From a virus: a stretch of DNA of 64,000 bases. Location of the stretch: the IMG/VR virus record IMGVR_UViG_3300047586_000066, positions 38,599 through 102,598 of that record, one strand, 5' to 3'. The translations under genes and the position numbers were made by a program. Positions 1-17,698 of this stretch are shown here, one piece after another; position 1 is the stretch's first letter; every line of letters starts with the position of its first letter. The notes beneath the pieces were generated by a model. That model worked only from the letters and a program-made list of their open reading frames with translations, did no database searches and had not been told where the DNA came from.

Positions 1-14
1 AAGGAGAGAAGCCA

Positions 15-1025: not shown

Positions 1026-1035
1026 AGGATTGGCC

Positions 1036-1823: not shown

Positions 1824-1824
1824 A

Positions 1825-2244
1825 ATGGAACTGAACGAAGCCGTTGAACTGGTCCTCAAACTTGCGCGGGAGTCAATCTCTTGGGATCTTATTGAAGTCA
1901 GAAAGGGACAGATTGAAGCCTGCAATTTAATCGAGGACTTTGCTGTGAATCACCTGGGACAAGATGACATTGGCGATCAATGCTGTTTTGTCCGTTCTTC
2001 GGGTACCGGGTGGTTTTGTTGGACGCATAAACACTTATGTCCCGGCCCTCTGCCCTACTGCGATCAAGAGCCCTGGGAAACTCCGCTAGGCCCGCGTGAA
2101 ATGCAAGCCGTCCGGACCTTATGGGATGCTCTCAGCGAGATCCTTGAAGACTCCTCGATTGCAACCTATCTGCCTCCAGAGCTACGGGCTAATGGACTGA
2201 AAGCTATCGAAAAAGCTGTAGACGCTTTCCCAGTGGAGGCATAG
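1825..2244 (+). CDS. hypothetical protein with Cys/His cluster
   Basis: GAGGAG RBS, ATG 1825; CC..CWTHKHLC..C. Confidence 0.6.
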   Translation: MELNEAVELVLKLARESISWDLIEVRKGQIEACNLIEDFAVNHLGQDDIGDQCCFVRSSGTGWFCWTHKHLCPGPLPYCDQEPWETPLGPREMQAVRTLWDALSEILEDSSIATYLPPELRANGLKAIEKAVDAFPVEA

Positions 2245-2246
2245 TC

Positions 2247-2489
2247 ATGAAGATCTACACTGGGAAAGCCACAATCAATAATTCAAGATTCGACCGAACC
2301 TACCGATTCCGTGTCTTTGCCACAAGCTATCACATGGCGGCAGCGCGAGCCATCAAGGTCGCAAAGAAGGAATTCAGGCTCAGCCAAGGACGAACTAAAA
2401 TCGCCTATATGGGCATTCCACATATTGAACAGCTTTCTAATCCCGTGATCCCTGCCGAGTGGGTAGATCAGGCATGGCTCATTGTTTGA
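2247..2489 (+). CDS. hypothetical protein
   Basis: GGAGG RBS, tight packing. Confidence 0.6.
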   Translation: MKIYTGKATINNSRFDRTYRFRVFATSYHMAAARAIKVAKKEFRLSQGRTKIAYMGIPHIEQLSNPVIPAEWVDQAWLIV

Positions 2490-2560
2490 TTCTGGAGGCA
2501 ACGACGCGGGATAGCCCGTGCCATTGCTCCTTGGATCACCCAAGGGGAAAGAGGGGAACC
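2490..2560 (+). promoter_or_regulatory. structured early-gene leader, copy 2
   Basis: long hairpin, then CCTTGG-ATCAC-CCAAGG (2529-2545), then GGAAAGAGGGGAACC before TTG 2561. Confidence 0.6.
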
Positions 2561-2812
2561 TTGAAAAGATCAATGCGCGTTATCTCAGCCATTCTGTGGC
2601 TTGCTCTCGCCGGGCTTGCCGCTGACAAGGCAGTTCAGGAACGGCCCAAAGTCCAATGTGCCGGTATCACTAAAGCCGGATTACGCTGCAAGCGCATCGT
2701 GAAACCGCCTGCCATATATTGCTGGCAGCATAAGGCACAGGCTTCGAAGAAAGCCGAATGCCATACCGATGCAGAGTGCGAACGCATGTACGGGAAACTT
2801 TTCCACAACTAG
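2561..2812 (+). CDS. small exported Cys-motif protein (DUF5763-like)
   Basis: signal-like VISAILWLALAGLAA; CAGITKAGLRCKR..YCWQH; start TTG 2561 or ATG 2573. Confidence 0.55.
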   Translation: MKRSMRVISAILWLALAGLAADKAVQERPKVQCAGITKAGLRCKRIVKPPAIYCWQHKAQASKKAECHTDAECERMYGKLFHN

Positions 2813-2886
2813 ACTCTGGACTTGAAGATGTGGGCACAGCCCATGCCTTCGAGCCTTGGGTTACCCAGGGGGAAAGAGAGAAACCG
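2813..2886 (+). promoter_or_regulatory. structured early-gene leader, copy 3
   Basis: long hairpin, then CCTTGGG-TTA-CCCAGGG (2854-2870), then GGAAAGAGAGAAACC before ATG 2887. Confidence 0.6.
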
Positions 2887-3102
2887 ATGGCCAATTATAA
2901 AGTGTGGGTTCAAATCGAAGTACAGCCCGAAATAAAAGATCCTTACAATGTTGACGAGCCCGTTGACATCATCGAAGTTGATACCCTTCCAAAAGCCCGT
3001 CGCATAGTCAATCAGATCATCGACCTTTTCACCGATGAGGAAACCATTGCCCACTGGAAGAGAACCAAAATCTATCCGTTTGAAAGGAGCAAAAATGTCT
3101 GA
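2887..3102 (+). CDS. hypothetical protein
   Basis: ATG 2887 after leader motif. Confidence 0.65.
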   Translation: MANYKVWVQIEVQPEIKDPYNVDEPVDIIEVDTLPKARRIVNQIIDLFTDEETIAHWKRTKIYPFERSKNV

Positions 3103-3982
3103 ATATGTCATTTGGCAGAGGGGTTACTATATCCCTCCTTCTCATCAGCTACCCGCTGGACCGGATGAACCTTTATTGCTCCCTGAGAATTGTGAGACAA
3201 TCATGAACGCTGAAGCGCCGGAAGGATGGCAGAAGATTGACGCGATTGTCGAACGGACTTCTACTGAAGGAGTTCAGGAAGCCCTGGAAGAAGCTGAAGC
3301 CGCGAAGAAACCAAAGCGCCACTGGGTAATGGACTACTTCAGAGGCAATGAGAAGGACGGTTATGTCTGTGTGCCGCCCTGGCTCAATGAACAGAAAGCG
3401 CCAAAGCTCCAGCCTGGTCCGATTGCCCGGATCGACAGGAATTATACCGTGACCGTGAAGCGGCTGACCGATAACATCAAGAACAATCTCAGTCAATACG
3501 AGAAGCATCTCGGCAAGAAGGTCGGCGCTTATGCCTGTGTCGCAACGGACGGACACCGGGCTTTACTGGTCCGCGATGCACTCAAGGATGGCAAACACCG
3601 AAAGAAATGGCCTGTCAACGGTATTCCGAAGCCCACCGATCCCAACTTCGTTATATCTGATCCTGAGATTATAAACGGGCTTCGACGGCTGGGGACTGTC
3701 ACCAAAGGGGAGAAATATCCTTCCTGGGTGACTTTCTCTCTTTCCGCTGAAGAGGGGAGACTCGTTCTCTCCTCTTCAGTTCCCGACATTAAGGGGACGG
3801 AGGTCTACGAATGCCAGAGCACGGCGTCTATCGAGTTCTCCGTGAATACTGAGTTTATGATTGCGGCTTGTGGCTCCTGGCCGCTGATCTGCTATTTCAA
3901 AGACAATGTGAGCCCGTTGATCTTCATGCCCAAAACCAAAGCCCGAGAATTCATGTACGTGGTTATGCCCGTACAGAAATGA
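3095..3982 (+). CDS. protein with C-terminal DNA polymerase III beta-clamp-like region
   Basis: VATDGHR motif and terminal FMYVVMPV are DnaN signatures; unrelated N-terminal ~130 aa. Confidence 0.6.
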   Translation: MSEYVIWQRGYYIPPSHQLPAGPDEPLLLPENCETIMNAEAPEGWQKIDAIVERTSTEGVQEALEEAEAAKKPKRHWVMDYFRGNEKDGYVCVPPWLNEQKAPKLQPGPIARIDRNYTVTVKRLTDNIKNNLSQYEKHLGKKVGAYACVATDGHRALLVRDALKDGKHRKKWPVNGIPKPTDPNFVISDPEIINGLRRLGTVTKGEKYPSWVTFSLSAEEGRLVLSSSVPDIKGTEVYECQSTASIEFSVNTEFMIAACGSWPLICYFKDNVSPLIFMPKTKAREFMYVVMPVQK

Positions 3983-4188
3983 GGATTATGGCTCTTACCT
4001 TGGAATCAGCTTTGATCGTGGCTCGCAATATTCGAGACATTGACAAGCCCTATCAGCCGGATAGCCCGCTTCCCTCCTGCCAGGAAGCTCTGGAGATTAT
4101 CGAAGATGCTCTTGGCCGCTATGACTTCAACTGGATCACTGGACAGGATGCCCGCGACCTACTCCGAAAGGAGTCTGGCTATGAATAA
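3979..4188 (+). CDS. hypothetical protein
   Basis: overlap-coupled ORF; start 3979 or 3988. Confidence 0.55.
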   Translation: MRIMALTLESALIVARNIRDIDKPYQPDSPLPSCQEALEIIEDALGRYDFNWITGQDARDLLRKESGYE

Positions 4189-4498
4189 AAGTCAATACGT
4201 TAGACCATTTGACAAACTTAACGACATGAAAGAAGACGCGAGGGGATTGCTTGTACGCATCGCCTCACTACACAGTCATTGCAGTCATGCCGAAGAATTT
4301 GGGCTTTATTCCTCCGACCATAGCGCCGTAGCCCATGCCTTTCGTTGTGCGGCAGAGCTTTATGTCGCACTTGAGGATACTGAAGAGAATGCAAGTTTCT
4401 ACCAAGACTTTGATAGATGGGAAAGACGCAGCAAAGAAGAGGCGGCAAAGGCGCTTCGTGATCGTATTCATGACGCCGAGTCAAAATCGAAAGCCTGA
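4181..4498 (+). CDS. hypothetical protein
   Basis: AAGGAG RBS, ATG 4181. Confidence 0.6.
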   Translation: MNKSQYVRPFDKLNDMKEDARGLLVRIASLHSHCSHAEEFGLYSSDHSAVAHAFRCAAELYVALEDTEENASFYQDFDRWERRSKEEAAKALRDRIHDAESKSKA

Positions 4499-4574
4499 TG
4501 ATCGACCACTTGGCTTGTGCACTAGTGCACAAGCCTGGAGGCCGCTGCTATCAGCGGGGAAGGAGAGATTCTCT
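4499..4574 (+). promoter_or_regulatory. structured early-gene leader, copy 4, containing a GTGCAC tandem palindrome
   Basis: perfect palindrome GGCTTGTGCACTAGTGCACAAGCC, then CCGCTG-CTAT-CAGCGG (4542-4557), then GGAAGGAGAG. Confidence 0.55.
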
Positions 4575-4964
4575 ATGGATGAAAAGAAAGAGCCGATGCC
4601 GGACGTGAATCGCAGCCCAATCGGCCAACGGGAATGGCTCGAAGAAGGCAAGCGGCTATTCGGCATGCCTGCAACAAAATGGAAGTTCATGTGTCCTGTC
4701 TGCAAGGGCATTCAGACAATGGACGACTTCATAGTAAGGAACCTCGATCATGACCTAGTGTACCAGGAATGCATCGGAAGACATATTCCCGGCGCTCAGG
4801 ATCGTTTCCTGAAGAGCAAGCGGCAGGTCGGCCCATGTGACTATGCAGCATATGGGCTCATTCATCTTGGTCGAACTGTTAAATACGAGGACAGGAAGGG
4901 AATAAAAATGCCTTCTATCCAGGCTTTCCCGTTTGCTCTCGATTTGAAGGAGGGATTACTATGA
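4575..4964 (+). CDS. VVA0879-like Cys-rich phage protein
   Basis: EW..EG.RLFG..WKF.CPVC..QECIGR..CDYAAYGL pattern. Confidence 0.65.
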   Translation: MDEKKEPMPDVNRSPIGQREWLEEGKRLFGMPATKWKFMCPVCKGIQTMDDFIVRNLDHDLVYQECIGRHIPGAQDRFLKSKRQVGPCDYAAYGLIHLGRTVKYEDRKGIKMPSIQAFPFALDLKEGLL

Positions 4965-5200
4965 GATACATAATTCTAAGCTGGGACAATGAGGAGGAGC
5001 AGACCTTTTACGATATTGTCCAAGCCGAAACCACAGAAAAAGCCAGAGAACTCGTCAAGAAAGTCCGGGACAATTATGCTGAAATAATTGCCTCATTTGA
5101 TGCCGAGGATCTCCGCTCTATGGCAGACCGTATCGCAAGAGCGCCTGAAGACGAAGTTATTTCAGCATCCAACTGGAAGAAATTCAAGGAGGCGTCTTGA
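4961..5200 (+). CDS. hypothetical protein
   Basis: GGAGGG RBS, overlap-coupled. Confidence 0.6.
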   Translation: MRYIILSWDNEEEQTFYDIVQAETTEKARELVKKVRDNYAEIIASFDAEDLRSMADRIARAPEDEVISASNWKKFKEAS

Positions 5201-5463
5201 TGGCTAGAACGATCCAATCTCTTACCCTTTCCGAGATGGACTGCAAAGGGCGCAACGGTTATTTCAACCACGGCAGGACTGAGATTTGGTCCTCCGGCAA
5301 TCCCGTTGATGGAATTACGATTTACGTCCAGGTCTACAGCAAGAAGACAGGCCAAAGTCCTCCGCTTCAGTTCCACGGCCCTGTGGCTGTGATCCTCCAA
5401 TACTTCGCCGAGCTGGCACGAAATTGCATGGAAGTATCCCGAGAAGCAGGAGGCAACCAATGA
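5197..5463 (+). CDS. hypothetical protein
   Basis: AGGAGG RBS, overlap-coupled. Confidence 0.6.
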   Translation: MMARTIQSLTLSEMDCKGRNGYFNHGRTEIWSSGNPVDGITIYVQVYSKKTGQSPPLQFHGPVAVILQYFAELARNCMEVSREAGGNQ

Positions 5464-5744
5464 AAGAACCCAAAGAAGTCATTTGCCCAATGTGCGGAGG
5501 GAATCGGCTGAAGGTCGGGCAGGTCTCCTACAACACTCAGGTCTATAGCCCAGACTGGGAAAAGAACGGCGACGATGAAGAATGGAGCGCGTCAGATTAC
5601 AGTCTTGACCAAAACCGTTACATTGTCTCGATCTACTGTCAGGATTGCTCCGAGAATTGCGAGGATACCGATCTGACCGATCTTGCCATTGAGGCTGGCT
5701 GGGAGATCTACGATGAAGATTCTTTTAAGCTGAAAACGAAGTAG
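5460..5744 (+). CDS. acidic zinc-ribbon protein
   Basis: CPMC ... CQDC, AGGAGG RBS. Confidence 0.6.
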   Translation: MKEPKEVICPMCGGNRLKVGQVSYNTQVYSPDWEKNGDDEEWSASDYSLDQNRYIVSIYCQDCSENCEDTDLTDLAIEAGWEIYDEDSFKLKTK

Positions 5745-5745
5745 C

Positions 5746-6420
5746 TTATTCGTCAGGATCGGGGATGCTTTCGTCTTCAGAATCTTCGAAAACGTCTCCT
5801 TCGGTAGGGGCGACTTCGGTCGCCTCTGCCTCAATCGTCTCGCCTTCGGGCTCAATCGTCTCAGGGAGGGCGACTTGTCTGGATTGCATTTTACTCATAA
5901 CTCGACGCAAAAGATCTTCGCTGCTATTGACGCCGCTGGGCGGCGTTGCCCCTCCTCCGATGCTGAGACTTCTCTGGTCAACGTGGACGTTGATCCCCCC
6001 AGGTTTTTCCTGCATGCCCGTGGCTTCACGGTATTCCTTCATGACGGAATGCGGGCTCAATCCCACGGCGAGATAATCCTTTGCTTCGAGGCTGAGCGCC
6101 GTGTTCAAGAGTTGGCGGTATTTCTTTCCTTCAGTTCTTTGAATCAAAATCCTGTTTCTATCGTTCTCATGGGAAATCAACGTCCGGGTGGGCAGCAACG
6201 ATTGGATGTGCTGAATATCCATCTCGATCTCTTCGAGAGAGCACTCTATCCCTTGAGCATTGAGGAATTTAACAATCTCCTCCTCTGCAAAACCCGAAAT
6301 AAAATGAGTATAAACCGTGGAGGCGCGACCGTGCTGCGCGTAGTCGTCCTTCCCAATCTGTTTTATCTCTGGCGGAGGTCCGCTTTTTGTGACAGCCCAC
6401 TCGAATCCTTGTCGTGCCAT
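5746..6420 (-). CDS. hypothetical protein, possibly terminase small subunit-like
   Basis: lone minus-strand 224-aa ORF; helical N-terminus, very acidic tail; function is a guess. Confidence 0.5.
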   Translation of the reverse strand: MARQGFEWAVTKSGPPPEIKQIGKDDYAQHGRASTVYTHFISGFAEEEIVKFLNAQGIECSLEEIEMDIQHIQSLLPTRTLISHENDRNRILIQRTEGKKYRQLLNTALSLEAKDYLAVGLSPHSVMKEYREATGMQEKPGGINVHVDQRSLSIGGGATPPSGVNSSEDLLRRVMSKMQSRQVALPETIEPEGETIEAEATEVAPTEGDVFEDSEDESIPDPDE

Positions 6421-6560
6421 GGAGGCATCTTACAACAAAGGAATCAAAATGTTTATTCCAATTTACAAAATCGTCGCTTTGGGGATTGTATTTGTTTTCT
6501 TTTTGATGGTCGCATTTCTCATGGGGTGCCTAGCTGGATTTCACGGCGATGACGATTAGC

Positions 6561-6575
6561 GTGCACTGGGTGCAC
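6561..6575. repeat. GTGCAC-TGG-GTGCAC site directly upstream of an RBS
   Basis: same 15-mer (in the coding sense) before the RBS of the gene starting at 44337. Confidence 0.7.
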
Positions 6576-6588
6576 AGAAGGAGCAAGA

Positions 6589-6879
6589 ATGGAAATCCTA
6601 ATTAGAAGGCCCAAGCATCAGAATATCCGCTTTAAGGAATCTGACGATATGGAGATTCACACCAGAAAAAGCAACATCCTTGATGATGGAGATCTTCATT
6701 TCACAGCCACAACGGGCCAGGGAGAAGTTTATATCCGAATGAGTCATGCAGAATTCATCATTCTTTCTCATCGCTATAGGCAATATCACAAGATGCACAC
6801 AAAGACCCCTAAGTATCGTGCTCGAATGAAACGTTTGATGAAGAAACTCGACTGTAAATATGGGAGACTCACAGAATGA
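6589..6879 (+). CDS. hypothetical basic protein
   Basis: AAGGAG RBS, 96 aa. Confidence 0.6.
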   Translation: MEILIRRPKHQNIRFKESDDMEIHTRKSNILDDGDLHFTATTGQGEVYIRMSHAEFIILSHRYRQYHKMHTKTPKYRARMKRLMKKLDCKYGRLTE

Positions 6880-7172
6880 ATAAAATCTTAGCTTTAACGC
6901 GGGCACAAGAAAACATGGCCGAAGCCCTGGCGATTGCGATGCGGTATGGAGGGATCGACGGCGCTCACCATAAAGATTGGGTTATCGATCAAATGGTTCG
7001 CGCTCTCACAGGATGCGCCAGAGTTGAGGTACGAGATAAGGACATCAATGGGAAAGACTATCTCTTCTTGAAATACAACGAATCGGAGACCTATTTGAAG
7101 TTTGTGGCAGCCGCAAAACAAGGTGTGGACAATCCAGAGACTTATGAATGGAATGTGGGGATAGCGCCATGA
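6876..7172 (+). CDS. conserved phage hypothetical protein
   Basis: YGGIDGAHHK.WVIDQMVR.L..YEW..GIAP pattern. Confidence 0.65.
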   Translation: MNKILALTRAQENMAEALAIAMRYGGIDGAHHKDWVIDQMVRALTGCARVEVRDKDINGKDYLFLKYNESETYLKFVAAAKQGVDNPETYEWNVGIAP

Positions 7173-8557
7173 AAACTCAAGTCTTTATTTCTGATCGACT
7201 CTACATCAAAGCTCCGGACCAGGAAGCCAGGATGAGCCATCCGCTCTTTCAGCGGGTCAAGCAGGAGCTTACCCACCTGAATCCGCAATATGACACGCTT
7301 CAGCGCCTGGGAAAGTGGACAGGCAACACACCGCGTTACACGATCATGTGGACAAACCACGAACAGACCTCCGAGTATTTCCTGGGCGCTCCACGCGGGT
7401 ACCGGGAAAAGCTCACCCTGGCTGCTGAGTCAACTCGAACGGATCTGGAATGGATCGACAAAACCGTTTGTCCTGAACTGACTGAACCGCTTGCCCATCC
7501 AACTCAGCCGCTCGACGAATTTCAGGATGATGCGCTTGAAGTTCTTCTTGGTTACGACAACGGCTGTATGGAAGCACCGACCGGAGCCGGGAAAACGAAT
7601 ATCCTTATGAGTATGATTCCCTTTCTCCAAACGCCTACGCTGATCCTGGTCCACACGAAAGAGCTGCTTATGCAGACGCATCGACGCCTGGGCGAATGGC
7701 TTGGCATTGAGGCTGGGATTCTCGGAGGAGGCAAGTCAAAGCTCAAGGATGTCACAGTTGGAATGATTCAGACCTTAGCCCGCATGGATATCCGGCAGTC
7801 CGGCGTCGGCGCTCGCTTCGGGGCTGTGATCGTCGATGAGTGCCATCATTCTCCGGCAATGACCTGGGCCGAGATTCTGAACCGGATGCAGGCAAAGTAT
7901 CGCTATGGCTTCACGGCGACTGCCTGGAGGAAAGACAAGCTCGAATTTGTGATCTGGGACGTGATCGGCGAGATCCGATCCAAGGTCAGCCGGCAGGAAG
8001 TCATCGACGCTGGGCGAATTGTGTGGCCGACTGTGGAGCAAGTTCACACGGACTATTCCTATCCAATCGGCGATGATTCGTCGAAGTGGATTGCCATGAT
8101 TTCCGACCTGATCGCCGATGAGGATAGAAACATACTCATCGAAAAGCAGGTCCGAACCCGAATGTGGGCGAACACGAAAGCTCTGATCCTGACAGATCGG
8201 ATCGATCACGCTAACCATCTTGCAAGCCGCCTGACCGACCTCGATCCCGCGCTGCTGACTGGGGAGCTAACGAAACGGGAGCGCGAGGAAACCATGACCC
8301 GCGTCCGAGCTGGCGCAAAGCTGACGGTCGCCACAATCCATCTCCTGGGTGAAGGCGTAGACGTTCCGGGCTGGGATCTTTTGTTCCTGGTCAGTCCTCT
8401 GTCCAAAGGTCCGAGGGTCATGCAGGCTCTTGGACGAATTGCCCGCGTGGCGCCGGGTAAGGATTCCGCCACATTGATCGACTTCGTTGACAGTGAGATT
8501 CCAATGCTTTACGCCGCGGCGAAAGGTCGCATGAGGCTTTACAGGAGGTCAGACTAA
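7169..8557 (+). CDS. superfamily 2 DExH helicase
   Basis: APTGAGKT, VIVDECHH, FTATA, EGVDVP, QALGRIAR. Confidence 0.93.
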   Translation: MKTQVFISDRLYIKAPDQEARMSHPLFQRVKQELTHLNPQYDTLQRLGKWTGNTPRYTIMWTNHEQTSEYFLGAPRGYREKLTLAAESTRTDLEWIDKTVCPELTEPLAHPTQPLDEFQDDALEVLLGYDNGCMEAPTGAGKTNILMSMIPFLQTPTLILVHTKELLMQTHRRLGEWLGIEAGILGGGKSKLKDVTVGMIQTLARMDIRQSGVGARFGAVIVDECHHSPAMTWAEILNRMQAKYRYGFTATAWRKDKLEFVIWDVIGEIRSKVSRQEVIDAGRIVWPTVEQVHTDYSYPIGDDSSKWIAMISDLIADEDRNILIEKQVRTRMWANTKALILTDRIDHANHLASRLTDLDPALLTGELTKREREETMTRVRAGAKLTVATIHLLGEGVDVPGWDLLFLVSPLSKGPRVMQALGRIARVAPGKDSATLIDFVDSEIPMLYAAAKGRMRLYRRSD

Positions 8558-8794
8558 ATGGCAAAAGAATATCACAAGAAATGGCCTTATCCGAAAGGTA
8601 CGTTGGCAATTCTGAAACCTACCTGGGTGTCGGTTTTCGATAAGATTTTGGTCAAGACCACAACTAAGGCTTCCTTGGCACGGCACGGAGAATGGATAGT
8701 TAAAATACGTCGTGCTGAACCTCCTCGAATAAGTCTGGGAGCTTGGTCCGTTTCTTTTTTGCAGAAAGTTCGAGTAAAGAAAGGAACGATATGA
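8558..8794 (+). CDS. small basic hypothetical protein
   Basis: exactly fills the gap between helicase and recombinase. Confidence 0.5.
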   Translation: MAKEYHKKWPYPKGTLAILKPTWVSVFDKILVKTTTKASLARHGEWIVKIRRAEPPRISLGAWSVSFLQKVRVKKGTI

Positions 8795-9378
8795 GCCGTA
8801 TCTATTTAACTGAAAAGGAAATTCATTTGGTTCTTGGGCTGGCGAAGGATATTAAGCGGGATTATGCCTTGCTGCATCTCATGGCTTCCACGGGGCTGAG
8901 ATCCTCGGACCTGCTTCGCCTGAAGATCAAGGATATGATCGACCAGGATGGAGACATCATCCGTCTGCTTCGTCTCAAAATGAAGAAAACCGGACTGTAT
9001 ATCGAGCATCCCCTCCGCGATGACTGCCGCGAAGCCATCCGCGAATGGCTTGGCAGCCGGGAAGACTCGAACCCCTGGCTATTCTGTTCCCTGAATCCCG
9101 GCTGGGTGAATAAGAACATGCCGCTCAGCCGGGTTCACCATCACAAAATGATGAAGAAGTACCTGGGCGCTATCCGCCATGGGTCCGAGCTGCAAGGAAG
9201 CTCAACGCATACCCTGCGCCGGAGCGTGGCGAAGCTGATCCACAATAAGACTGGCAAGATCGCCGTGGCTCAAAAGTTCCTGGGGCATACGAGTCCCGCG
9301 AACACGTCCCTTTACATTGATCCGGACGAATTAAAGGAAACCGCAAATAAGATTGTCTTGGAGGAATGCCAGTGGTAG
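8791..9378 (+). CDS. tyrosine recombinase, catalytic domain only
   Basis: TGLRSSDLL (R), HTLRRS (HxxR), LGH..TSLY (H,Y); 195 aa. Confidence 0.88.
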   Translation: MSRIYLTEKEIHLVLGLAKDIKRDYALLHLMASTGLRSSDLLRLKIKDMIDQDGDIIRLLRLKMKKTGLYIEHPLRDDCREAIREWLGSREDSNPWLFCSLNPGWVNKNMPLSRVHHHKMMKKYLGAIRHGSELQGSSTHTLRRSVAKLIHNKTGKIAVAQKFLGHTSPANTSLYIDPDELKETANKIVLEECQW

Positions 9379-9388
9379 AGTACCGAAA

Positions 9389-9952
9389 ATGTTCAAGGGA
9401 CCCAAATCGGCGCATTCAGAGGGCGGAAAAGTAATGGCCAAACGCCAACGCGAAGCTGCTCTACAGCGATACCTTACTGATCCCAAGATTTGCCAATTTT
9501 GTAATCGAACAATTCTTATGCGTTTGGGTCAGAAGACTTCAGAAGTAAAAGTTAAGAAATTCTGCAACCATTCATGTGCGGCTGCATTTTCCAACAAAAG
9601 TCGCAGAAAAACACGATTCTGTAAATGTGGCTCAATCCTTGAAGGGAAAAGAACTCTTTGCCCCGATTGTCTCCCAGCCCGCAAAGAGGCAGCTTTACTG
9701 AAAACAAAAGCAGAAGTAAGGCGTACCACTCTCCATACACATGCCCGGCGACGTTGCCCTGCTAAGTCTTGCGAATCCTGCGGATATTCCAAATTTACAG
9801 AAGTATGTCATATCCGCAAAGTGGAGGATTTTCCAGATGAAGCCACTCTTGAGGAAATCAACAGCCCAGAAAATATGATTCGCCTTTGTCCTAATTGCCA
9901 TTGGGAGCTGGATCGTGGTATGCTCGACATCTCACGAATTAGAGCGGGCTAG
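9389..9952 (+). CDS. HNH endonuclease with Zn-finger N-terminus
   Basis: CESC..EVCHIR..NSPENMIRLCPNCHWELD; KFCNHSCAA. Confidence 0.85.
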   Translation: MFKGPKSAHSEGGKVMAKRQREAALQRYLTDPKICQFCNRTILMRLGQKTSEVKVKKFCNHSCAAAFSNKSRRKTRFCKCGSILEGKRTLCPDCLPARKEAALLKTKAEVRRTTLHTHARRRCPAKSCESCGYSKFTEVCHIRKVEDFPDEATLEEINSPENMIRLCPNCHWELDRGMLDISRIRAG

Positions 9953-10028
9953 AGTATGGGTCACTCGCCGGTCTCATAATCCGGTAGTCGAAAGACATAG
10001 GACGGTTCGAGTCCGTCGCCCGCTCCCA
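9943..10028 (+). tRNA. tRNA with CAT anticodon (Met/fMet-like) and long variable arm
   Basis: acceptor AGCGGGC/GCCCGCT, D stem GAGT/ACTC, loop CTCATAA (CAT 9975-9977), T arm GACGG-TTCGAGT-CCGTC, C73, encoded CCA. Confidence 0.85.
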
Positions 10029-10044
10029 AATCTTCCCAATTTAC

Positions 10045-10073
10045 TTGACGATTTCATATACCGATGTTAAATT
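10045..10073 (+). promoter_or_regulatory. sigma70-type promoter
   Basis: TTGACG-17 nt-TAAATT with extended TG. Confidence 0.65.
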
Positions 10074-10079
10074 GCTGAT

Positions 10080-10160
10080 GTCCTACCAGTGGCGGCGTGT
10101 CCACTTGGTTTCTCTCTTGGGGCTGCGACTATATCGGAGTTGCAGCCCCATTCCTTTTTT
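10080..10160 (+). ncRNA. candidate ~80-nt small RNA
   Basis: lies between the promoter at 10045-10073 and a terminator; 5' hairpin, TTGGTTTCTCTCTT tract, no plausible ORF. Confidence 0.45.
10118..10160 (+). terminator. intrinsic terminator
   Basis: TGGGGCTGCGACT-ATATCGG-AGTTGCAGCCCCA followed by TTCCTTTTTT. Confidence 0.75.
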
Positions 10161-10168
10161 ACTATACT
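10140..10168 (+). promoter_or_regulatory. sigma70-type promoter for the glycosylation operon (near-leaderless)
   Basis: TTGCAG-17 nt-TATACT, 8 nt before ATG 10177. Confidence 0.5.
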
Positions 10169-10176
10169 CGACGCCG

Positions 10177-10371
10177 ATGCCAAAACCCTGCAATCATACC
10201 GAACGCTACCGGTGCCAAGCCTGCGGGGAATGCTATCCTTGCTTCCACACGCAGCAATATTTTCACGGGCTCTACTGGTGGAAATGCCGCTTCCAGAATC
10301 GCGTCCACCGGACGGATTATACTGGCAGGATTGTGGAGTGGGTCGGAAACGCTTTCGGAGGAAAGCTATGA
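10177..10371 (+). CDS. small Cys/His-rich protein
   Basis: MPKPCNH..CQACGECYPCFH; ATGA overlap with the next gene. Confidence 0.55.
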   Translation: MPKPCNHTERYRCQACGECYPCFHTQQYFHGLYWWKCRFQNRVHRTDYTGRIVEWVGNAFGGKL

Positions 10372-11054
10372 ATAAAATCTGCCTGATCGTTTTTACTGAT
10401 GGCCGAGATGGTCTCTTGGTTGATACCCTGGCGAGCTTCGACCGCAACATGGAGGGGCTCTTCCACTACCAAATCCTTTCCGATGATTCTGGAGATCCCG
10501 CCTGCGCGGACGTGCTGGACAAGTATTACGGCCACAGATTCCACATTATCGACCATCACCCGAAAAGACTGGGGTTCTGTGCCAGTATCAGAGAGACCTG
10601 GAAGAAGGTCCCAGCCGACAATAACCTAATCTTCCATCTTGAGGATGATTTCCTCCTCCTGCGAAAAGTCCGCCTCGACGATCTTGCCCTGGTCATGCAT
10701 CACAATCCCCAGCTCATGGAAATCACTTTGCTGCGGCAGCCCTTGGGACCGGTTGAAAGAGCGGCCGGGGGAATCTGGCAATGCAACGCAGATAGCTATA
10801 CCGAGCGTCACCTGACTTTTCCGGACGGACGCGATCTCACCTGGCTGGAGCATACGCTTGCGCTCTGGAATACGAATCCGAGCTTGTATCGCCAGAGCTT
10901 AACGCTGCTTTCATTTCCCGGTCCTCCATTCTGTGAGCGCGAATTCGGATTCTTGGGGCAACATCTAGGCTGGCACCTGGCGTTTTGGGGAAATAAAAAG
11001 GACGATCCGATTCTCCGGCACATTGGAGAGGAAAGGAAAGGGACAGGATACTGA
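10368..11054 (+). CDS. GT-A fold glycosyltransferase (family 2-like)
   Basis: ILSDDSGD, IFHLEDDF, NPSLY. Confidence 0.8.
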   Translation: MNKICLIVFTDGRDGLLVDTLASFDRNMEGLFHYQILSDDSGDPACADVLDKYYGHRFHIIDHHPKRLGFCASIRETWKKVPADNNLIFHLEDDFLLLRKVRLDDLALVMHHNPQLMEITLLRQPLGPVERAAGGIWQCNADSYTERHLTFPDGRDLTWLEHTLALWNTNPSLYRQSLTLLSFPGPPFCEREFGFLGQHLGWHLAFWGNKKDDPILRHIGEERKGTGY

Positions 11055-11055
11055 T

Positions 11056-11709
11056 ATGAAACGATCTCAATCACCCGAGCTGTCAATTTACACCCAATCC
11101 ATGGATGGATACCTGGCTCACTATGATCCTTTTGTGGAGCCATGGGTCAACGAGAAAATAAGGATGTTAGAGCTGGGGATCTGGAGAGGAGAATCCCTTC
11201 TCATGTGGCAAGAATACTTCAAAAACGCCCACATTACCGGAATTGACATTGAACCCGTCCCTGAATTAAATCAGCCACAAATCCGATGTTTTCAGGGCGA
11301 TCAGTCCGATCTTAATTTTCTCATGGACGTTGCGGCAGAAAAGACATGGCCTGGTGGTTTCCATTTCATCATCGACGATGCTTCCCATCTCGGCTGGCAC
11401 ACAAAGCGATCCTTCTGGTATCTCTTTGACAACTGGCTCCTGCCTGGCGGATTGTATGCCATCGAAGACTGGGGAGTCGGATACTGGTGGAACTGGCCTG
11501 ACGGTCGGCAGCTCGAAGAGAAACTCGATGACAAAGTGATCTTCCCGAGTCATCAATGCGGCGTGGTCGGATTTATAAAGCAGCTTGTTGACGAACAGGG
11601 CCGAGGGGATGTCTGCCGGGGAAGCACAGGCAAATACGCTCCACGGAGTTCGAAGTTCAAGAGCATCACCATTGTTCCTGGCATTGTTTTCATCCGGAAG
11701 GCTCTATGA
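11056..11709 (+). CDS. class I SAM-dependent (sugar O-)methyltransferase
   Basis: MLELGIWRGES, GIDI, QGDQSD, IIDDASH, GGLYAIED. Confidence 0.85.
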   Translation: MKRSQSPELSIYTQSMDGYLAHYDPFVEPWVNEKIRMLELGIWRGESLLMWQEYFKNAHITGIDIEPVPELNQPQIRCFQGDQSDLNFLMDVAAEKTWPGGFHFIIDDASHLGWHTKRSFWYLFDNWLLPGGLYAIEDWGVGYWWNWPDGRQLEEKLDDKVIFPSHQCGVVGFIKQLVDEQGRGDVCRGSTGKYAPRSSKFKSITIVPGIVFIRKAL

Positions 11710-12521
11710 AAGAAGTCTGGGGAGTGACGATGGTTCGTGACGAAGCCGACATCATCGAGCACACGCTTACCCACATGATCAGCGAGGGGGTTGACGGCAT
11801 CGTGGTCGCCGACAACCTCTCCACAGACGCTACGCCGGACATACTAAGAGCCGTCCAGCGCAATTCTAACGTCCCTGTGTTGATCGTAGAGGACAAAGTT
11901 GTTGCCTATCGGCAAAGTTTGAAGATGACGGCGCTTGTCGAGCTGGCGGCCGCGCATGGGGCTGAATACATCATTCCCTTTGATGCTGATGAGTTCTGGA
12001 CATGTGTCGGCAGGCTACGGCTTGCCGATTGCATTCGTGACCTCGGGCTGGACGTGATCCGGGTTCCCTACTATGACCACTACTGTACGGCTCTCGATCC
12101 CGTGGAATCGAACCCGTTCAAGCGCATGAAGTGGAGAGAGTCGAAATTCTCCTCTTGGAATGGGATTCGCAACCGTAGAATTGCCTTTCGTTGTTATCGG
12201 CATGGCTGCGTTCTCGCCCAGGGGAATCATTACTTGATCCTGGAGAACGGCCGGCAGCTCGACGGGGATGAATCCTATCTCTACATGCATCACTTCCCTT
12301 ACCGATCTGTAGAGCAATTTGTAGTCAAAGTGAAGAATGGGATTGAGGCTTACGAAGCAGCAACCGAGCTGCCCGCCAGCTATGGACATGTCTGGCGGGA
12401 GCACGGAGCGATACTGCGAGCTGAGGGCATCGAAGGAGTCCGGCGCCTCTTCTATTCGAAATGGTTTGTCACTGATCCCAGGTCTCTCGGCCTGGTCCTG
12501 AATCAAACTCTTCCCCTGTAA
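11706..12521 (+). CDS. glycosyltransferase family 2
   Basis: MVRDEADII, DNLSTDAT, FDADEFW, QGNH, HFPYRS. Confidence 0.88.
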   Translation: MKEVWGVTMVRDEADIIEHTLTHMISEGVDGIVVADNLSTDATPDILRAVQRNSNVPVLIVEDKVVAYRQSLKMTALVELAAAHGAEYIIPFDADEFWTCVGRLRLADCIRDLGLDVIRVPYYDHYCTALDPVESNPFKRMKWRESKFSSWNGIRNRRIAFRCYRHGCVLAQGNHYLILENGRQLDGDESYLYMHHFPYRSVEQFVVKVKNGIEAYEAATELPASYGHVWREHGAILRAEGIEGVRRLFYSKWFVTDPRSLGLVLNQTLPL

Positions 12522-13099
12522 CTCGTCCCTCTCATCCGATCCCTTTTGAACCTGATCAAATGAAGGAAAAGCGTGTCGTAGGTGAACGTGAACGAATTCC
12601 ACAGAGGCCAATCAGGACCGAAGATCGCCAGGATGTCATCCTGTGTCAGATCCCACTGATGATAGGGATTGTAGTGAGTGGTTTTCTTCAGGGGGATAGT
12701 GATTATCGCCTCCAGCGCGGCCGAGCGTTTTGCCAGATCTGCGATGTCCCTGGGATCTTTGAGATGTTCTATCGTCTCCAGAGAGACCAGGCAGTCCACC
12801 CGGTCAGGGGCCCAGTTGGCGATTGTGTCGTGAATGAATTTCAGATTCCCAAGGGACCCAAAAACGGACCTGGCAACCTTGATCGATTCTTCGTGATGGT
12901 CGATGCCGATGCAGAGTTTCACATCTGGGTTCTTTGCCATCAAGTAGGTCCCATAGCCCATGCCGCAGGCGGCGTCGAGCACGGTTCCCCATACGTGCTG
13001 ACGAATGATGGAGTATCTTTCAAGATGTCGCCGGACCAGAATGTCGTTTTCCAGAACATCCACTTCCAATCTGTTTAGAGCTATTCTTTCGTTGACCAT
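12503..13099 (-). CDS. class I SAM-dependent methyltransferase
   Basis: HLERY, VLDAACGMGYG, SLETIEHL, NPYH; start MVNER after AGGAG. Confidence 0.88.
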   Translation of the reverse strand: MVNERIALNRLEVDVLENDILVRRHLERYSIIRQHVWGTVLDAACGMGYGTYLMAKNPDVKLCIGIDHHEESIKVARSVFGSLGNLKFIHDTIANWAPDRVDCLVSLETIEHLKDPRDIADLAKRSAALEAIITIPLKKTTHYNPYHQWDLTQDDILAIFGPDWPLWNSFTFTYDTLFLHLIRFKRDRMRGTSYRGRV

Positions 13100-14979
13100 T
13101 TCTCCTCGTATGGATCTCGTTCTAACGGGGTTATTAGTTCCGGGTGCCTCACGAATGACAGGCTGAAATTGTCCCCAGGCACATTGGAGTCTCCGCCGCG
13201 TCCGTGTGCGACAACAACATCCTTCGTGATCCCCAATTTCCATCCTGCTTCTACAGCTCTCCGGCAGAGGTCGGCGTCATCCTTTCCGTACCGGATGAAT
13301 CTCTCATCCAAGAGACCGATCTGGTCAAGCATCGCTCTCCGGAGATAAACAAACGGGAAACAGATGTAATCCTCTCCGAGCCCCGAGCAATAGACGAGCC
13401 CCTTAGTCGGCCAGTGATGCTTCCACTGAGCCCGCTGCTTCGGATTCCCGACTCCTCCGTCAATCAGTGGACTGATAATCCCGACGTCTGGATTGTCCTG
13501 GGCCACTCTCCACATGGTTGCGAAGGTATTAAATTGCAGGAGGCGAACATCGTCATTGATCAGAATGACGTCTGCCTTCCCAGCGGCTTCAATCCCAACG
13601 TTACATTGCCTGGCAAAGATAAATGGCCAATGATCAGGCGTCGAAACAACCTCGAACCCGTATCCGCGTTCATGTCCATCGGCGACCACGATTATCCTGG
13701 GCTTCGCTTTCTCGAATCCCTCGATGCTGTGAATCAGGGGATTGATGATGTCCTCATATTTATTTGGGATGACAACACAGTAGTTCTTCGTTCGCGAAGG
13801 CTCATTTATAGCGGCGTCGCCTGCTCCCCAGGATCTCACGGGCATATAAACCAGTTCTGTCCCTGGGTCGATGACGCAGGGTGGGCCGCTTTTCTTTAAT
13901 TCTTCAACAAGCAGGCCATCGGCAGCGTGGTACTGGGTATCTTCGAAGCTCCATAGCCTATCTTTGAAGTAAGGCTTGTGGAAGAACTGATTCGTGTCGG
14001 TTTTATTTAGTCCAGGGTCCGGGTTGAAGAACCGTTTCCCGAGCATCTTCATGGGGAACACTCCCCAATCCGGGAAGTTGTTCAGGAAGATGTTCTCCGC
14101 CAGGACCATCAGCGCCCGGGGGCTGTAGAAATTGTCGTCATCCAGGTAAAGGACATACATTCCCGAGGTCTTGGGGATCGCGTTATGTCGGCAGGTTATC
14201 CCGTAATTCTTATGCGCCTGGTCACAAATGATCACTTTGCGCTGCGGGTGAGCTAAATATGTCGGGATAGCAGCGTTCGGCAGATCCACCATGATAATAT
14301 GCTCCCAGTTCGTGTATTTCTGGCGCTCAATACTCCGGCACGCCCGCTCGAGTGACGGCCGCAGGACTGTTGGAGTTATGATCGAGAACTTGAACGGGGG
14401 ATGCGGCCCATTGTATGCGATCGCACTTCGGTAGTGGCCAGGAGGGTAGACCTGGCTGATGGTGATCTTGTCCAAATCTACGCAATGGGTCTTGACTGCC
14501 CGCATGAACACGCCCGGAAAGTCGGGATCTTTCATAATCTCCAGGTTCATGTCCCTAAATATTCTGGAAAAATCTCCGCAAGTGAACCTCCAGTGATCTT
14601 CCGGCTCGGGGTGATACCAGAATCCGTGGGATCTCGTCGTCACAAAGGCGACTCCACCAGGTTTAAGCAGGTTCTTTATGGTTTTAACCGTCTTTCTCCA
14701 GTCGTTTACGTGCTCCAGAACCTCAGCGCACACAATCACGTCAAACCATTCGGGCTCGAATCTGACCTCCAGGTCGTCGATATTCATCTGGATGTCAACG
14801 CCGGGCCCTGACCGCATGTCGATCCCGAAGTAGAGAGCCGGGTTCAATGCCTGGAATATCTCCCGAGCGGAGCCTCGGATTTGATCCGTAATCAGGCTAC
14901 CCATCTCAAGCACCCGTTTGCCCTCGACTTCATCGTGCCGGGCATGCTCCCTCAAAAACCGCATTACTGATTCGTGCAC
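13081..14979 (-). CDS. methyltransferase-GT2-GT2 fusion
   Basis: VLEMGS/EVLEHV/LKPGG; FSIITPT/YLDDDN; ILINDDV/LDERF..YG.DD.DLC. Confidence 0.85.
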   Translation of the reverse strand: MHESVMRFLREHARHDEVEGKRVLEMGSLITDQIRGSAREIFQALNPALYFGIDMRSGPGVDIQMNIDDLEVRFEPEWFDVIVCAEVLEHVNDWRKTVKTIKNLLKPGGVAFVTTRSHGFWYHPEPEDHWRFTCGDFSRIFRDMNLEIMKDPDFPGVFMRAVKTHCVDLDKITISQVYPPGHYRSAIAYNGPHPPFKFSIITPTVLRPSLERACRSIERQKYTNWEHIIMVDLPNAAIPTYLAHPQRKVIICDQAHKNYGITCRHNAIPKTSGMYVLYLDDDNFYSPRALMVLAENIFLNNFPDWGVFPMKMLGKRFFNPDPGLNKTDTNQFFHKPYFKDRLWSFEDTQYHAADGLLVEELKKSGPPCVIDPGTELVYMPVRSWGAGDAAINEPSRTKNYCVVIPNKYEDIINPLIHSIEGFEKAKPRIIVVADGHERGYGFEVVSTPDHWPFIFARQCNVGIEAAGKADVILINDDVRLLQFNTFATMWRVAQDNPDVGIISPLIDGGVGNPKQRAQWKHHWPTKGLVYCSGLGEDYICFPFVYLRRAMLDQIGLLDERFIRYGKDDADLCRRAVEAGWKLGITKDVVVAHGRGGDSNVPGDNFSLSFVRHPELITPLERDPYEEKWSTKE

Positions 14980-15060
14980 CAGTGCACTCCTTTCTGATTT
15001 CTTCCTTCATAATCTCCCTAGAAGCCCCTAGAATCGTTTTCCCCGTCAGGGGGGTTATCC

Positions 15061-15534
15061 TTAGTCGCCCGCTCCTGTGATCTTGGCTGCTTCCCTGGCT
15101 AGGCAACCGGGAATGCGGCAAACAGGACAGACCCCATCTTCGATTTCGACAATATCCAGATCAAAGCTGTCGTTCTTACCTGGAACACGATAAACATGAA
15201 GTTCCTGGACCTGCCTATCGTTTTTGATCCGGCCTCCGAGCTGTACCCCATCGAGAACAGCTTTGACTGCATCCACGTCGAGTCGGCCGCGCAGCCAGAT
15301 TTCCATTTTCACTGGTTCGAGAGTGTCTTCTGCGAGGATCATCTTTGAATAGAATCCGATCACGTTCTCCGCCTGCTTGACCGCTTTCGAAGGAGAGATC
15401 CAATAAAGCGGCCCTTTGATGTACTTCTTCAAGCCAGCCACGATGTCCCTGACTCCATTCCAGAAAGTGGCATTGAAATGGACCTCGTAGGTGTTCGCCT
15501 TGTTCGGTAGCGCAATAGGGATCGTCGTTCTCAT
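15061..15534 (-). CDS. rusA: RusA-like Holliday junction resolvase
   Basis: RLDVDAVKAVLDG..IKNDRQV acidic motif; next to dnaB. Confidence 0.65.
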   Translation of the reverse strand: MRTTIPIALPNKANTYEVHFNATFWNGVRDIVAGLKKYIKGPLYWISPSKAVKQAENVIGFYSKMILAEDTLEPVKMEIWLRGRLDVDAVKAVLDGVQLGGRIKNDRQVQELHVYRVPGKNDSFDLDIVEIEDGVCPVCRIPGCLAREAAKITGAGD

Positions 15535-16865
15535 TCTTGCTCCTGATAGAGATTGCTGAAGGTAGAATAGTGTCTCTCAAACGCCATCGAGAATGAACCG
15601 GTCATGCCGTTCCTTTGTTTCCCGATGATTACATCGGCCAGTCCGGCATTCTCTTCTGTTTCTCGGGCGAGTTCCGGCCGATGCAGGAGGATAACCACGT
15701 CGGCGTCCTGTTCAATCTGCCCAGACTGCCGAAGATCCGAGAGTTTGGGAGTCTGGTCTCGGCGCTTCTCTGTGGACCTGGAGAGCTGGGCGGCGGCGAT
15801 GACTGACGCATTTGTGCTTTTTGCCATGTTCTTTAGGGCAACGGATACGGCGCCGATTTTCTCGACATCGTTCGCCCGCTGAAGATGCTTTGGGGGACTG
15901 ACAAGCTGGAGGTAGTCGATTAGGATCACAGGGATCTCGGTCGGAATCCTTCGAGTCCTGGACCTCATGTCCGACACGGTTAATGCTGAGCTGTCATCAA
16001 TCCAGATCGGCAACGCGGAGAGGTCTCCGGCAGCACGGCTTAGCCTGTTCCAATCCTCTTTGTTCATGAATCCGGTATTCATGCGTGTGAGATCCACGCG
16101 GGACATAGCCGACAGCATTCTCATAATCAGTTCCATTTCAGCCATTTCCAGGGAAAAGATAATAATCGGGGTGCCAATCTTCGCCATTTGGATCGCTATC
16201 CCGAGTAGCATGCTTGTTTTCCCATGCCCTGGTCTGCCGGCAATAATTACGAGATTCTTCCGATGAACGCCTGTGGGGATCATCCGATCCAGCTCGGAGA
16301 ATCCCAGCTTGAAGCCTCCAGAGGTTTTATGGTTGGCAATATTTTCTATGGTTCGGAATGCTTCAGAGACAAGATCGGAGATCTCCCGCGGTCCTTCTTT
16401 CCGCTGCATCTTTGACAGCTCGCCGTCGAGCCGGATGAATGCGTCGTCAATGACATCCTTGAACGGCTGTTCATCGTAGCAGCGGGTCATCAGTTCATTT
16501 CCGGCCTGGACTCCGATCCTAAGCGCCGCCTTCTCTCGAACGATGCTGGCGTAATGCTCTATGTTCATAGCCCTTGGAAGTCCGTCAGTTAAGCTGACCA
16601 GGTAAGCAGCTCCTCCGGTGGCTTCAAGCTCATTCGAACTCTGTAGAGCATTCTTCAGGGTTATCAGATCCAAGCCGCTTCCGGAGTCAATCACTTCGAC
16701 CATCTTAGCGAAGATCCTCCTATGGCTGTCGAGGTAAAAATCGGTCGCCTCGATAGTCCCCAGGGCGACATTGATTGCTTTCTCTTCAAGCAGGATGGCT
16801 CCGAGAATCGATCGCTCAGCCTCAAGGTTATTCGGAAGCATCTTTTCCAAGCTGATGTCTGCCAT
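15531..16865 (-). CDS. dnaB: replicative DNA helicase
   Basis: EAERSILGAIL, AGRPGHGKT, FSLEM, IDYLQL, QLSR, SDLRQSGQIEQDAD, KQRNG. Confidence 0.97.
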   Translation of the reverse strand: MADISLEKMLPNNLEAERSILGAILLEEKAINVALGTIEATDFYLDSHRRIFAKMVEVIDSGSGLDLITLKNALQSSNELEATGGAAYLVSLTDGLPRAMNIEHYASIVREKAALRIGVQAGNELMTRCYDEQPFKDVIDDAFIRLDGELSKMQRKEGPREISDLVSEAFRTIENIANHKTSGGFKLGFSELDRMIPTGVHRKNLVIIAGRPGHGKTSMLLGIAIQMAKIGTPIIIFSLEMAEMELIMRMLSAMSRVDLTRMNTGFMNKEDWNRLSRAAGDLSALPIWIDDSSALTVSDMRSRTRRIPTEIPVILIDYLQLVSPPKHLQRANDVEKIGAVSVALKNMAKSTNASVIAAAQLSRSTEKRRDQTPKLSDLRQSGQIEQDADVVILLHRPELARETEENAGLADVIIGKQRNGMTGSFSMAFERHYSTFSNLYQEQE

Positions 16866-17698
16866 TATTCCTCCCTTTCGAGAATGATCGCGCCCTTGGT
16901 ACACTCCTGGAATCTCCGCATCGTCGCCGCTCCAAGGATCTCTGATAGTTTTTCTTGGGGTTCATTTGAAGCAAATGACACAGACACCATAGGTATGTTG
17001 CGCCAGCATAGGTCTGACAGCTCGAAGATTTTCCGAATAGAGAAGTCTGTAACTGGCACGATATCCAGCTCATCCAGGAAGACATGGATTTTATTCTTAA
17101 TTTTTTCCGCAAAGAAGATTCCGTCCGGGTGATCGTCACCGAACTGGCTCATCCTCATTCCTTCGACGTATTGGGAAGCGGTCCTGAAGATTACCTCGAT
17201 CCCGGCGTAGGCGCATTCTTGAGCTTGGGCCCACATGAGGAAGCTCTTTCCGACCCCAGTGGAACCATAAAACGCCCAGCCAGCCGTTGGGTCCTGGTAA
17301 AGAGTCTTGAGGATATTCGTTTGAGCTCGGCCATTTACTCCCCGCTTCATGACTACCTTCGAAGGCAGAATGATTTCAGCTTCGAATGTTTCCACGGGGA
17401 ATACGCGGTAATGGTAGTCAGGCATCAGGCGTTTGCCTTCAAGATCTTTCCTGATCTGCGGGGGAGCTTGCTCCAGCGTATGCTGAGCTGCTTTCCGGTA
17501 ATGGCACTCGCAGTATGTTAAGGCATACCCGGATTTGAATTCTCTTTCTACCCATTCGCTGTCCCGGCAGATTCCGCATTTATAGCCGGGCTCTTCAGTC
17601 ATTGAGGATAACGCCTCTTCGCTTTTCGTTCTTAAACGGCTCATGACTTCCTTTATCGCTGAGCCGACTTCTCTTGGTTCCTCCATCCTTTCCTCCAT
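16865..17698 (-). CDS. DnaC/IstB-like ATPase (helicase loader)
   Basis: CGIC..CEC Zn motif, GSTGVGKS, FLDEL; upstream of dnaB. Confidence 0.8.
   Translation of the reverse strand: MEERMEEPREVGSAIKEVMSRLRTKSEEALSSMTEEPGYKCGICRDSEWVEREFKSGYALTYCECHYRKAAQHTLEQAPPQIRKDLEGKRLMPDYHYRVFPVETFEAEIILPSKVVMKRGVNGRAQTNILKTLYQDPTAGWAFYGSTGVGKSFLMWAQAQECAYAGIEVIFRTASQYVEGMRMSQFGDDHPDGIFFAEKIKNKIHVFLDELDIVPVTDFSIRKIFELSDLCWRNIPMVSVSFASNEPQEKLSEILGAATMRRFQECTKGAIILEREE

Follow-up and report, generated by a model that had tools for sequence, protein, structure and literature searches.

Positions 10045-10160 of the phage DNA analysed here hold what is, judged by sequence comparison, a real, conserved small non-coding unit, and it is held with moderate confidence that this unit encodes a trans-acting antisense RNA that would block translation initiation of a set of phage genes. 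A preliminary description had proposed one small RNA antisense to the leaders of several genes, and comparative evidence now supports the core of that proposal: the trans-acting antisense reading is preferred because of the anatomy and conservation of the unit, its unpaired seed, complementarity to a family of gene leaders and other start regions above that of controls, and co-variation of the seed with start regions in one relative, G002. The seed is conserved and predicted to be accessible, and its complementarity to start regions exceeds chance and is conserved or co-varying, being weak in one related genome (G001).

Genomic setting and related phages

The window, a stretch of 64,000 nucleotides, comprises bases 38599-102598 of a 102.6-kb IMG/VR viral contig (here G000) that is estimated to be 96% complete. 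Plus-strand genes form a single block of about 18 kb, from about 4.6 kb upstream of the window to window position 13078, with minus-strand gene blocks on either side. Besides small ORFs, the block encodes a helicase, a short tyrosine-recombinase-like protein, an HNH endonuclease, a tRNA-Met, and glycosyl- and methyltransferases. Host RNA polymerase probably transcribes it, since near-consensus sigma-70-like promoters lie at its divergent left border and upstream of the window's first gene, and from their position and these promoters the block genes would be early.

Relatives were retrieved by two routes. A search with a leader 16-mer yielded three viral contigs of about 110 kb (G001-G003), and a search with the recombinase-like protein yielded G004 (with direct terminal repeats), G005 and a 3970-nt metagenome contig, L070. 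The related genomes, from uncultivated phages of about 105-110 kb, have 45-58% G+C, and orthologues of the 196-amino acid tyrosine-recombinase-like protein (PF00589; gene at window 8788-9378, + strand), 46-60% identical to that of G000, are encoded upstream of the unit and served as its synteny marker. Homologous units were found in G001 and G003 (one lineage), G002, G004, G005 and L070, making seven units in six lineages with that of G000, and the unit usually stands right after the short recombinase gene and a tRNA-Met. The location beside the recombinase and tRNA genes, as first described, is thus shared by most relatives. In the window the tRNA-Met (CAU; 86 nt with a long variable arm, 9943-10028, + strand) ends 17 nt before the -35 hexamer of the unit, and five of the seven units have as their syntenic neighbour a tRNA-Met, intact or decayed.

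Several features of this neighborhood can be recorded in their own right. The best Rfam score of the window's tRNA was to the tRNA-Sec model (36 bits, under the cut-off); its orthologues in relatives measure 72-78 nt, and G003 has a decayed copy only, for which ARAGORN calls no tRNA. An HNH endonuclease gene (PF13391, window 9353-9952) lies between the recombinase gene and the tRNA, in the same arrangement as in L070; its presence in these two and absence from the corresponding place in G001-G004 suggest a mobile insertion. Further along, a 4141-amino acid ORF (window 29850-42275, minus strand) has DarB-like antirestriction, DNA methyltransferase and helicase matches. An N4-like phage with virion RNA polymerase hairpin promoters had been suspected from this ORF, and was rejected with its assignment as a DarB-like methyltransferase/helicase.

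Wider searches added no further members. A DNA search of a phage database with the locus gave no match, and a highly conserved virion protein matched in the phage database only portal proteins of Tunturiibacter (Acidobacteria) phages, at 26% identity. No relatives were found by way of the downstream glycosyltransferase-like gene, nor in viral contigs with the recombinase homologues P0002 and P0009, and a recombinase scan of 185,579 prokaryote genomes showed no prophage or host copy. A scan of prokaryote genomes with a pattern of the small RNA gave 23 matches, all by chance, none of the 23 having the hairpin and U-run.

Anatomy of the unit

The unit opens with a sigma-70-like promoter (10045-10073, + strand) comprising a -35 hexamer TTGACG (10045-10050), a 17-nt spacer and a -10 hexamer TAAATT (10068-10073), with a TG (10065-10066) two bases upstream of the -10 hexamer; the predicted start of transcription is at about 10080. 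The promoter matched 9 of 12 consensus positions in the scan and is one of about four intergenic sigma-70-like sites genome-wide. The region shows no general excess of promoter-like sites over shuffled sequence (11 found, 16 expected), and with 9 of 12 positions matched the promoter alone is therefore not significant. At the other end lies an intrinsic terminator (10118-10160, + strand) with a 13-bp GC-rich stem-loop at 10118-10150 and a U-run at 10151-10160, TTCCTTTTTT following directly after the hairpin; it was the top match of a terminator scan of window positions 1-20000.

Between these elements lies the pyrimidine seed TTGGTTTCTCTCTT (10105-10118, + strand), just where it had been reported, which is the complement of the leader and start-region motif GAGAGAAACC. 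A 5' hairpin (10085-10109, + strand) is specific to the G000 lineage and takes in the first four seed bases, UUGG, which close it, so that the earlier caution about part of the seed being folded away was well placed. Within the seed, UUUCUCUCUU is predicted to be unpaired. The RNA from about 10080 to 10160 is predicted to fold as 5' hairpin, unpaired UUUCUCUCUU and terminator (z = -4.6), and RNAs of 81-87 nt from the unit give fold z values of -3.5 to -4.6 relative to shuffles. Within the terminator loop an AUCGG motif (window 10130-10138; GAUCGGGG in most relatives) is kept in five of six lineages despite changing stems, and might serve as a further contact, as a site of protein binding or as a target of GATC methylation.

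An open frame at 10045-10371 crosses the unit; its conserved portion is confined to a 64-amino acid Cys-rich ORF (10177-10371), which in G001 and G003 lies about 390 nt further downstream, past another gene. No ORF is kept across relatives on either strand of the unit, the plus-strand open frame having no counterpart there. The bracketing of about 80 nt without an ORF by a promoter and a terminator, as originally claimed, is confirmed in that both elements are present, the terminator being the best in the first 20 kb, and that no conserved ORF intervenes. The unit thus has its own promoter, an intrinsic terminator and no conserved ORF, as would an independent transcription unit predicted from sequence. 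The Cys-rich ORF itself, without a Shine-Dalgarno sequence and with an ATGA overlap with the next gene, is 62-67% identical in G001 and G003, and for that reason is a real gene.

Conservation of the unit

All seven units share TTGAC[AG], a 17-18-nt spacer, a -10-like hexamer, the seed, a GC-rich hairpin and a U-run. The promoter and seed are, respectively, TTGACG-17-TAAATT and UUGGUUUCUCUCUU in the window, TTGACA-18-TAGAAT and GCUUGGUUUCUCUC in G001 and G003, TTGACA-18-TACAAT and again GCUUGGUUUCUCUC in G004, TTGACA-17-GAAGAT and AUGGUCUCUCUU in G002, TTGACA-18-TATCAT and GCUUUCUCUCUUCUCC in L070, and TTGACA-17-TATCCT and GGGUUUCUCUCUU in G005; the -10 hexamer of G002 is poor. The stretch from the -10 hexamer to the seed varies from 8 to 52 nt and is not alignable. 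The 5' hairpin of the window is absent in G001, G002, G003 and G004, and L070 and G005 have other 5' hairpins; the seed of G001, G003 and G004 lies almost at the predicted 5' end, starting about one base past it. Terminator stems vary in sequence and are predicted still to be paired over 12-13 bp, that of L070 being almost wholly different. The seed core GGU(U/C)UCUCU is kept in five of six lineages with diverged flanks, making the seed, the AUCGG loop motif aside, the best-conserved transcribed part of the unit across lineages, and it is predicted to be unpaired in all five lineages that were folded.

A covariance model (R1) built on five units recovered these training units at 61-80 bits, and scored the units of L070 and G005 at noise level (12.6 bits), so that the homology of these two rests on synteny and anatomy. 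The model revealed no paralogues of the unit in five genomes and is too insensitive for a wider search. An Rfam cmscan of window 9000-11500, with E values up to 10, found nothing at 10045-10160, its only matches being the tRNA and two chance lncRNA matches.

A gene for a small, very basic protein, which starts MGD and continues with SKKPKKGAAKVR, was also observed next to the unit in several relatives. It adjoins the unit on the same strand in L070 (3258-3478, + strand) and is convergent to it in G001 (about 48700-48870, minus strand), G003 and G004, with its own conserved TTGACA promoter.

Leaders and start regions complementary to the seed

The principal candidate targets belong to a repeated leader family, in which a long imperfect hairpin (20-30 bp) is followed by GGGGAAAGAGAGAAAC, then 2-4 nt, and then the start codon. 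A genome-wide search found seven copies in G000, confined to the plus-strand block, at genome positions 35982, 37058, 38111, 39119 (window 521), 41142 (2544), 41467 (2869) and 43154 (4556), all on the plus strand. Each relative examined has two to six copies, which share one strand of the equivalent block. Most predicted leader folds leave the purine motif unpaired. The hairpins themselves lie at window 465-539, 2490-2560, 2813-2886 and 4499-4574, and at genome 35920-38130 upstream of the window; their stems co-vary between copies and between phages, and they appear to resemble RNase III-type intercistronic processing or stabilising sites.

The four complementary sites named in the preliminary description are all there. 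Two plus-strand leader copies have perfect seed matches: GGGGAAAGAGAGAAAC-gaa-ATG at 521-542, preceding a 161-amino acid gene, with 11 of 11 nt (526-536), and GGGGAAAGAGAGAAAC-cg-ATG at 2869-2889 with 12 of 12 nt (2874-2885). A variant copy, GGGGAAAGAGGGGAAC (2544-2575, + strand), pairs over 12 nt with two G-U pairs (2549-2560) and has both TTG 2561 and ATG 2573 in frame. The fourth site is the start region AGGAGAGAAGCCAATG of a 149-amino acid gene (2-17, + strand), which pairs over 14 nt with two G-U pairs (2-15) and forms the third best seed duplex among 151 start regions. That these sites lie at gene starts holds for all four, with the refinement that three belong to the repeated leader family rather than to generic ribosome-binding sites, whereas that at 2-15 is a plain ribosome-binding site with no hairpin leader and with its own TTGACA-18-TATAGT promoter just upstream of the window. 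A divergent leader copy, GGGGAAGGAGAGATTC-tct-ATG (4556-4577, + strand), has a weaker seed match.

With up to two mismatches, the seed 12-mer has 13 matches in the window, relative to 7.2 +/- 2.6 in shuffles, 1 of 100 of which reaches 13. The exact 11-mer occurs three times on the plus strand of the 102.6-kb genome, each time in a leader, and its complement occurs once, at the 10045-10160 locus. The targets lie 5.5-12.7 kb from the unit on the same strand, or about 31 kb away on the other strand, and so the arrangement is not that of a cis-antisense RNA of the lambda OOP or P22 sar type.

Complementarity against controls

CU-rich RNA pairs readily with purine-rich ribosome-binding sites, a caution that the preliminary description had itself attached to its proposal. 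When all 30-nt windows of the genome are considered, duplex energies like those of the leaders (-21 to -25 kcal/mol) arise elsewhere by chance, the leaders being among the top sites and not unique; duplex energy alone is thus not decisive, and the genome-wide energy scan was replaced by tests on start regions. Crude gene prediction in five genomes gave 141-162 genes each, and the start region was taken as -25 to +6.

When the 141-162 start regions are ordered by duplex energy, the leader genes come, as had been predicted for them, among the first ~10 in four genomes and for the most part in the fifth too (Mann-Whitney p = 5e-4 to 2e-3); two leaders in G003 and one in G004 rank lower. Matches of at least 8 nt to the seed are 5-18 times commoner in start regions than in random windows, and 13-18 times commoner in G000, G002 and G004. 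The number of start regions with a Watson-Crick match of at least 8 nt to the genome's own seed was 8 in G000 (reached by 20 of 2000 shuffled seeds), 11 in G002 (0 of 2000), 10 in G004 (2 of 2000), and 3 in G001, which is not significant (230 of 2000); in the latter genome just one of four leaders has a long seed match. Start-region matches therefore exceed those of shuffled seeds in three of four lineages, and the earlier expectation that pairing should surpass shuffled controls is upheld in G000, G002 and G004, the excess in G001 not being significant.

Co-variation of seed and start regions in G002

Compensatory changes in related phages had been suggested as a check on the proposal, and the seed and the start-region motif do shift together in G002. 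There the start-region motif is GAGAGACC and the seed GGUCUCUC, relative to a motif GAGAAACC and a seed GGUUUCUC elsewhere, the seed of G002 being without the same two bases that are present in GGUUUCUC. Start-adjacent GAGAGAC(C) outnumbers GAGAAAC 15:3 in G002, and the ratio is 6:26 across the four remaining genomes (Fisher p = 1.3e-5). Correspondingly, the G002 seed has matches of at least 9 nt in six of its own start regions and in 0-1 of each other genome, and the non-G002 seeds match one G002 start region at this length. Though many genes are involved, this co-variation is that of one lineage and one evolutionary event.

A PurA-like candidate target outside the leaders

A PurA-like adenylosuccinate synthetase gene (PF00709, E = 3e-56; genome 15903-17225, L075:903-2225, minus strand) is present in four of the five genomes, each time with a seed match in its 5' region. 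The match is of 10 nt, 20 nt before the ATG, in G000 (ranking 4th among start regions); of 11 nt, reaching the A of the ATG, in G001 (3rd); of 11 + 5 nt, through the ATG into the second codon, in G003 (1st); and of 13 nt, reaching the A of the ATG, in G004 (1st). The G004 match uses the 5' extension of the seed, which argues that these sites are not merely inherited copies. The PurA-like gene is thus a conserved additional putative target outside the leaders and on the other strand. Hence the target set first envisaged, leaders of several early genes, is supported for the presumed early plus-strand block and needs widening to include genes such as this one.

Proposed mechanism

In the mechanism proposed, host sigma-70 RNA polymerase would transcribe, from the unit's own promoter, a small RNA of about 80 nt in G000 and about 55-60 nt in some relatives, ending at the intrinsic terminator; read-through tRNA-Met precursors could also release it. 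Through its single-stranded CU-rich seed the RNA would pair with the purine stretch GAGAGAAACC right before the start codons of phage mRNAs, these being the seven plus-strand (presumed early) leader genes and a few others, such as that for the PurA-like adenylosuccinate synthetase. The duplex would mask the Shine-Dalgarno-like segment together with the spacer, keeping the 30S subunit off, and would probably speed mRNA decay, so that output of the gene set would drop as the RNA accumulates. We infer transcription itself, repression rather than activation as the outcome, the timing, and the part of any chaperone.

Alternative explanations

Four other readings were weighed. It is unlikely, though the best surviving of these, that the RNA is real and conserved with its main role elsewhere, in pairing with host mRNAs, in titrating a host factor with affinity for CU- or U-rich RNA (such as Hfq or ribosomal protein S1), or in acting in cis within a long plus-strand precursor. 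The conserved anatomy would suit any small-RNA function, the seed shares its strand and gene block with the leaders, and the conserved AUCGG loop motif is left unexplained by the start-region model. A host decoy or a host-only target would not, however, predict that the seed tracks a phage-specific spacer (ACC versus AAACC) in G002, nor the conserved match at the PurA-like start region.

Quite unlikely is the reading in which there is no separate RNA gene, the hairpin being the terminator of a recombinase-tRNA-Met transcript, the promoter arising by chance, and the complementarity reflecting ordinary pyrimidine-purine affinity. The interval of only 17 nt between the tRNA end and the -35 hexamer, the lack of enrichment of promoter-like sites in the region and the comparable duplex energies at many unrelated sites all fit this reading. 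It does not account for the recurrence of TTGAC[AG], spacer and -10-like hexamer in seven of seven units amid unalignable surroundings, nor for a seed that is conserved and co-varies with start regions. Moreover, in G001 an ORF of about 300 nt intervenes between tRNA and unit, and there is no tRNA near the unit of G005, from which it follows that the unit is independent of the tRNA.

A promoter-proximal attenuator like lambda pR'-tR' (the 6S transcript), in which the short RNA would be a by-product of regulated read-through to the Cys-rich ORF and glycosyltransferase genes, is highly unlikely. Same-strand genes do follow the terminator directly in G000, G002 and L070, but in G001, G003 and G004 the next gene past the terminator is a convergent one on the minus strand with its own promoter, so that the unit is not a leader for downstream genes, and such an attenuator leaves seed conservation and co-variation unexplained. 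Very little credence can be given to a functional minus strand, on which an inverted leader copy would drive a mini-ORF: the minus strand does read hairpin, AAGAGAGAAACC, aa and GTG in G000, with a start codon after the motif in relatives also, but the peptides (6 to at least 17 codons) share no similarity and end after 6 codons in G003 and not in its close relative G001, CCCC stands where the leader has GGGGAA, the plus strand alone has the promoter and U-run, and the transcript would run antisense into the tRNA in most units. The attenuator and minus-strand readings were accordingly rejected on the convergent downstream genes, the non-conserved peptides and the co-variation of the seed.

Implications

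With the trans-acting antisense RNA as the preferred reading, a broader proposal can be put forward more tentatively, and with less than even confidence, that this clade possesses an RNA-based, class-wide translational shut-off. A start-region code, GAGAGAAACC-AUG after RNase III-like intercistronic hairpins, would be read by a co-evolving small RNA that silences the leader genes and nucleotide-metabolism genes (PurA-like), as an RNA counterpart of T4 RegA/RegB. If so, a single small RNA, fitted to a ribosome-binding leader private to these phages, would time or limit a whole gene class. To our knowledge, a target has been established for very few small RNAs of non-model phages, and trans control of the phage's own genes is known for almost none. 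In this candidate both the seed and a multi-gene target motif are defined and co-variation occurs naturally, in a clade without a cultured member, and the compact seed-and-leader pair is directly testable by reporter fusions.

Comparison with known systems

Small RNAs can arise from tRNA precursors, as do the tRNA-trailer RNAs (3'ETS-leuZ). We know of no established targets for the T4 band C/D RNAs or for PAK_P3 sRNA2. The latter are small non-coding RNAs beside tRNA genes in virulent phages, and PAK_P3 sRNA2 has an 11-nt stretch in common with tRNA T-loops and no ribosome-binding site match (PMC4933390). The unit differs from these tRNA-adjacent RNAs in having its own conserved promoter and in standing apart from a tRNA in G001 and G005.

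In architecture the unit shares with RybB, OmrA/B and the prophage RNA DicF an exposed seed, a terminator hairpin, a U-tail and many initiation regions per seed. Those RNAs are products of chromosomal or prophage genes and act on host mRNAs with Hfq, whereas the best matches of the unit are the phage's own repeated leaders, there is no homology, and the unit belongs to an uncultivated phage clade not known to lysogenise. The T4 RegB endoribonuclease and RegA repressor, both phage-made, disable early mRNAs as a class by acting at their Shine-Dalgarno or initiation region; these are proteins and functional analogues, whereas in the unit an RNA seed would confer the specificity.

The system nearest in logic is the c4 antisense RNA, for which related phages vary in recognition sequence and target in step (heteroimmunity). 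In phages P1 and P7 (immI), c4 is a phage-encoded RNA of about 77 nt that pairs around a ribosome-binding site of the phage's own mRNA and blocks translation (PMC12197685). The unit is likewise proposed to pair with ribosome-binding sites of its own phage, and it has no sequence or structure match to c4 in the Rfam scan of window 9000-11500. Where c4 recognises its target by two short loop sequences, is cut from the same operon transcript and controls one operon (icd-ant), the unit would use a single linear seed beside its terminator, has its own predicted promoter, and has 8-11 matching start regions per genome.
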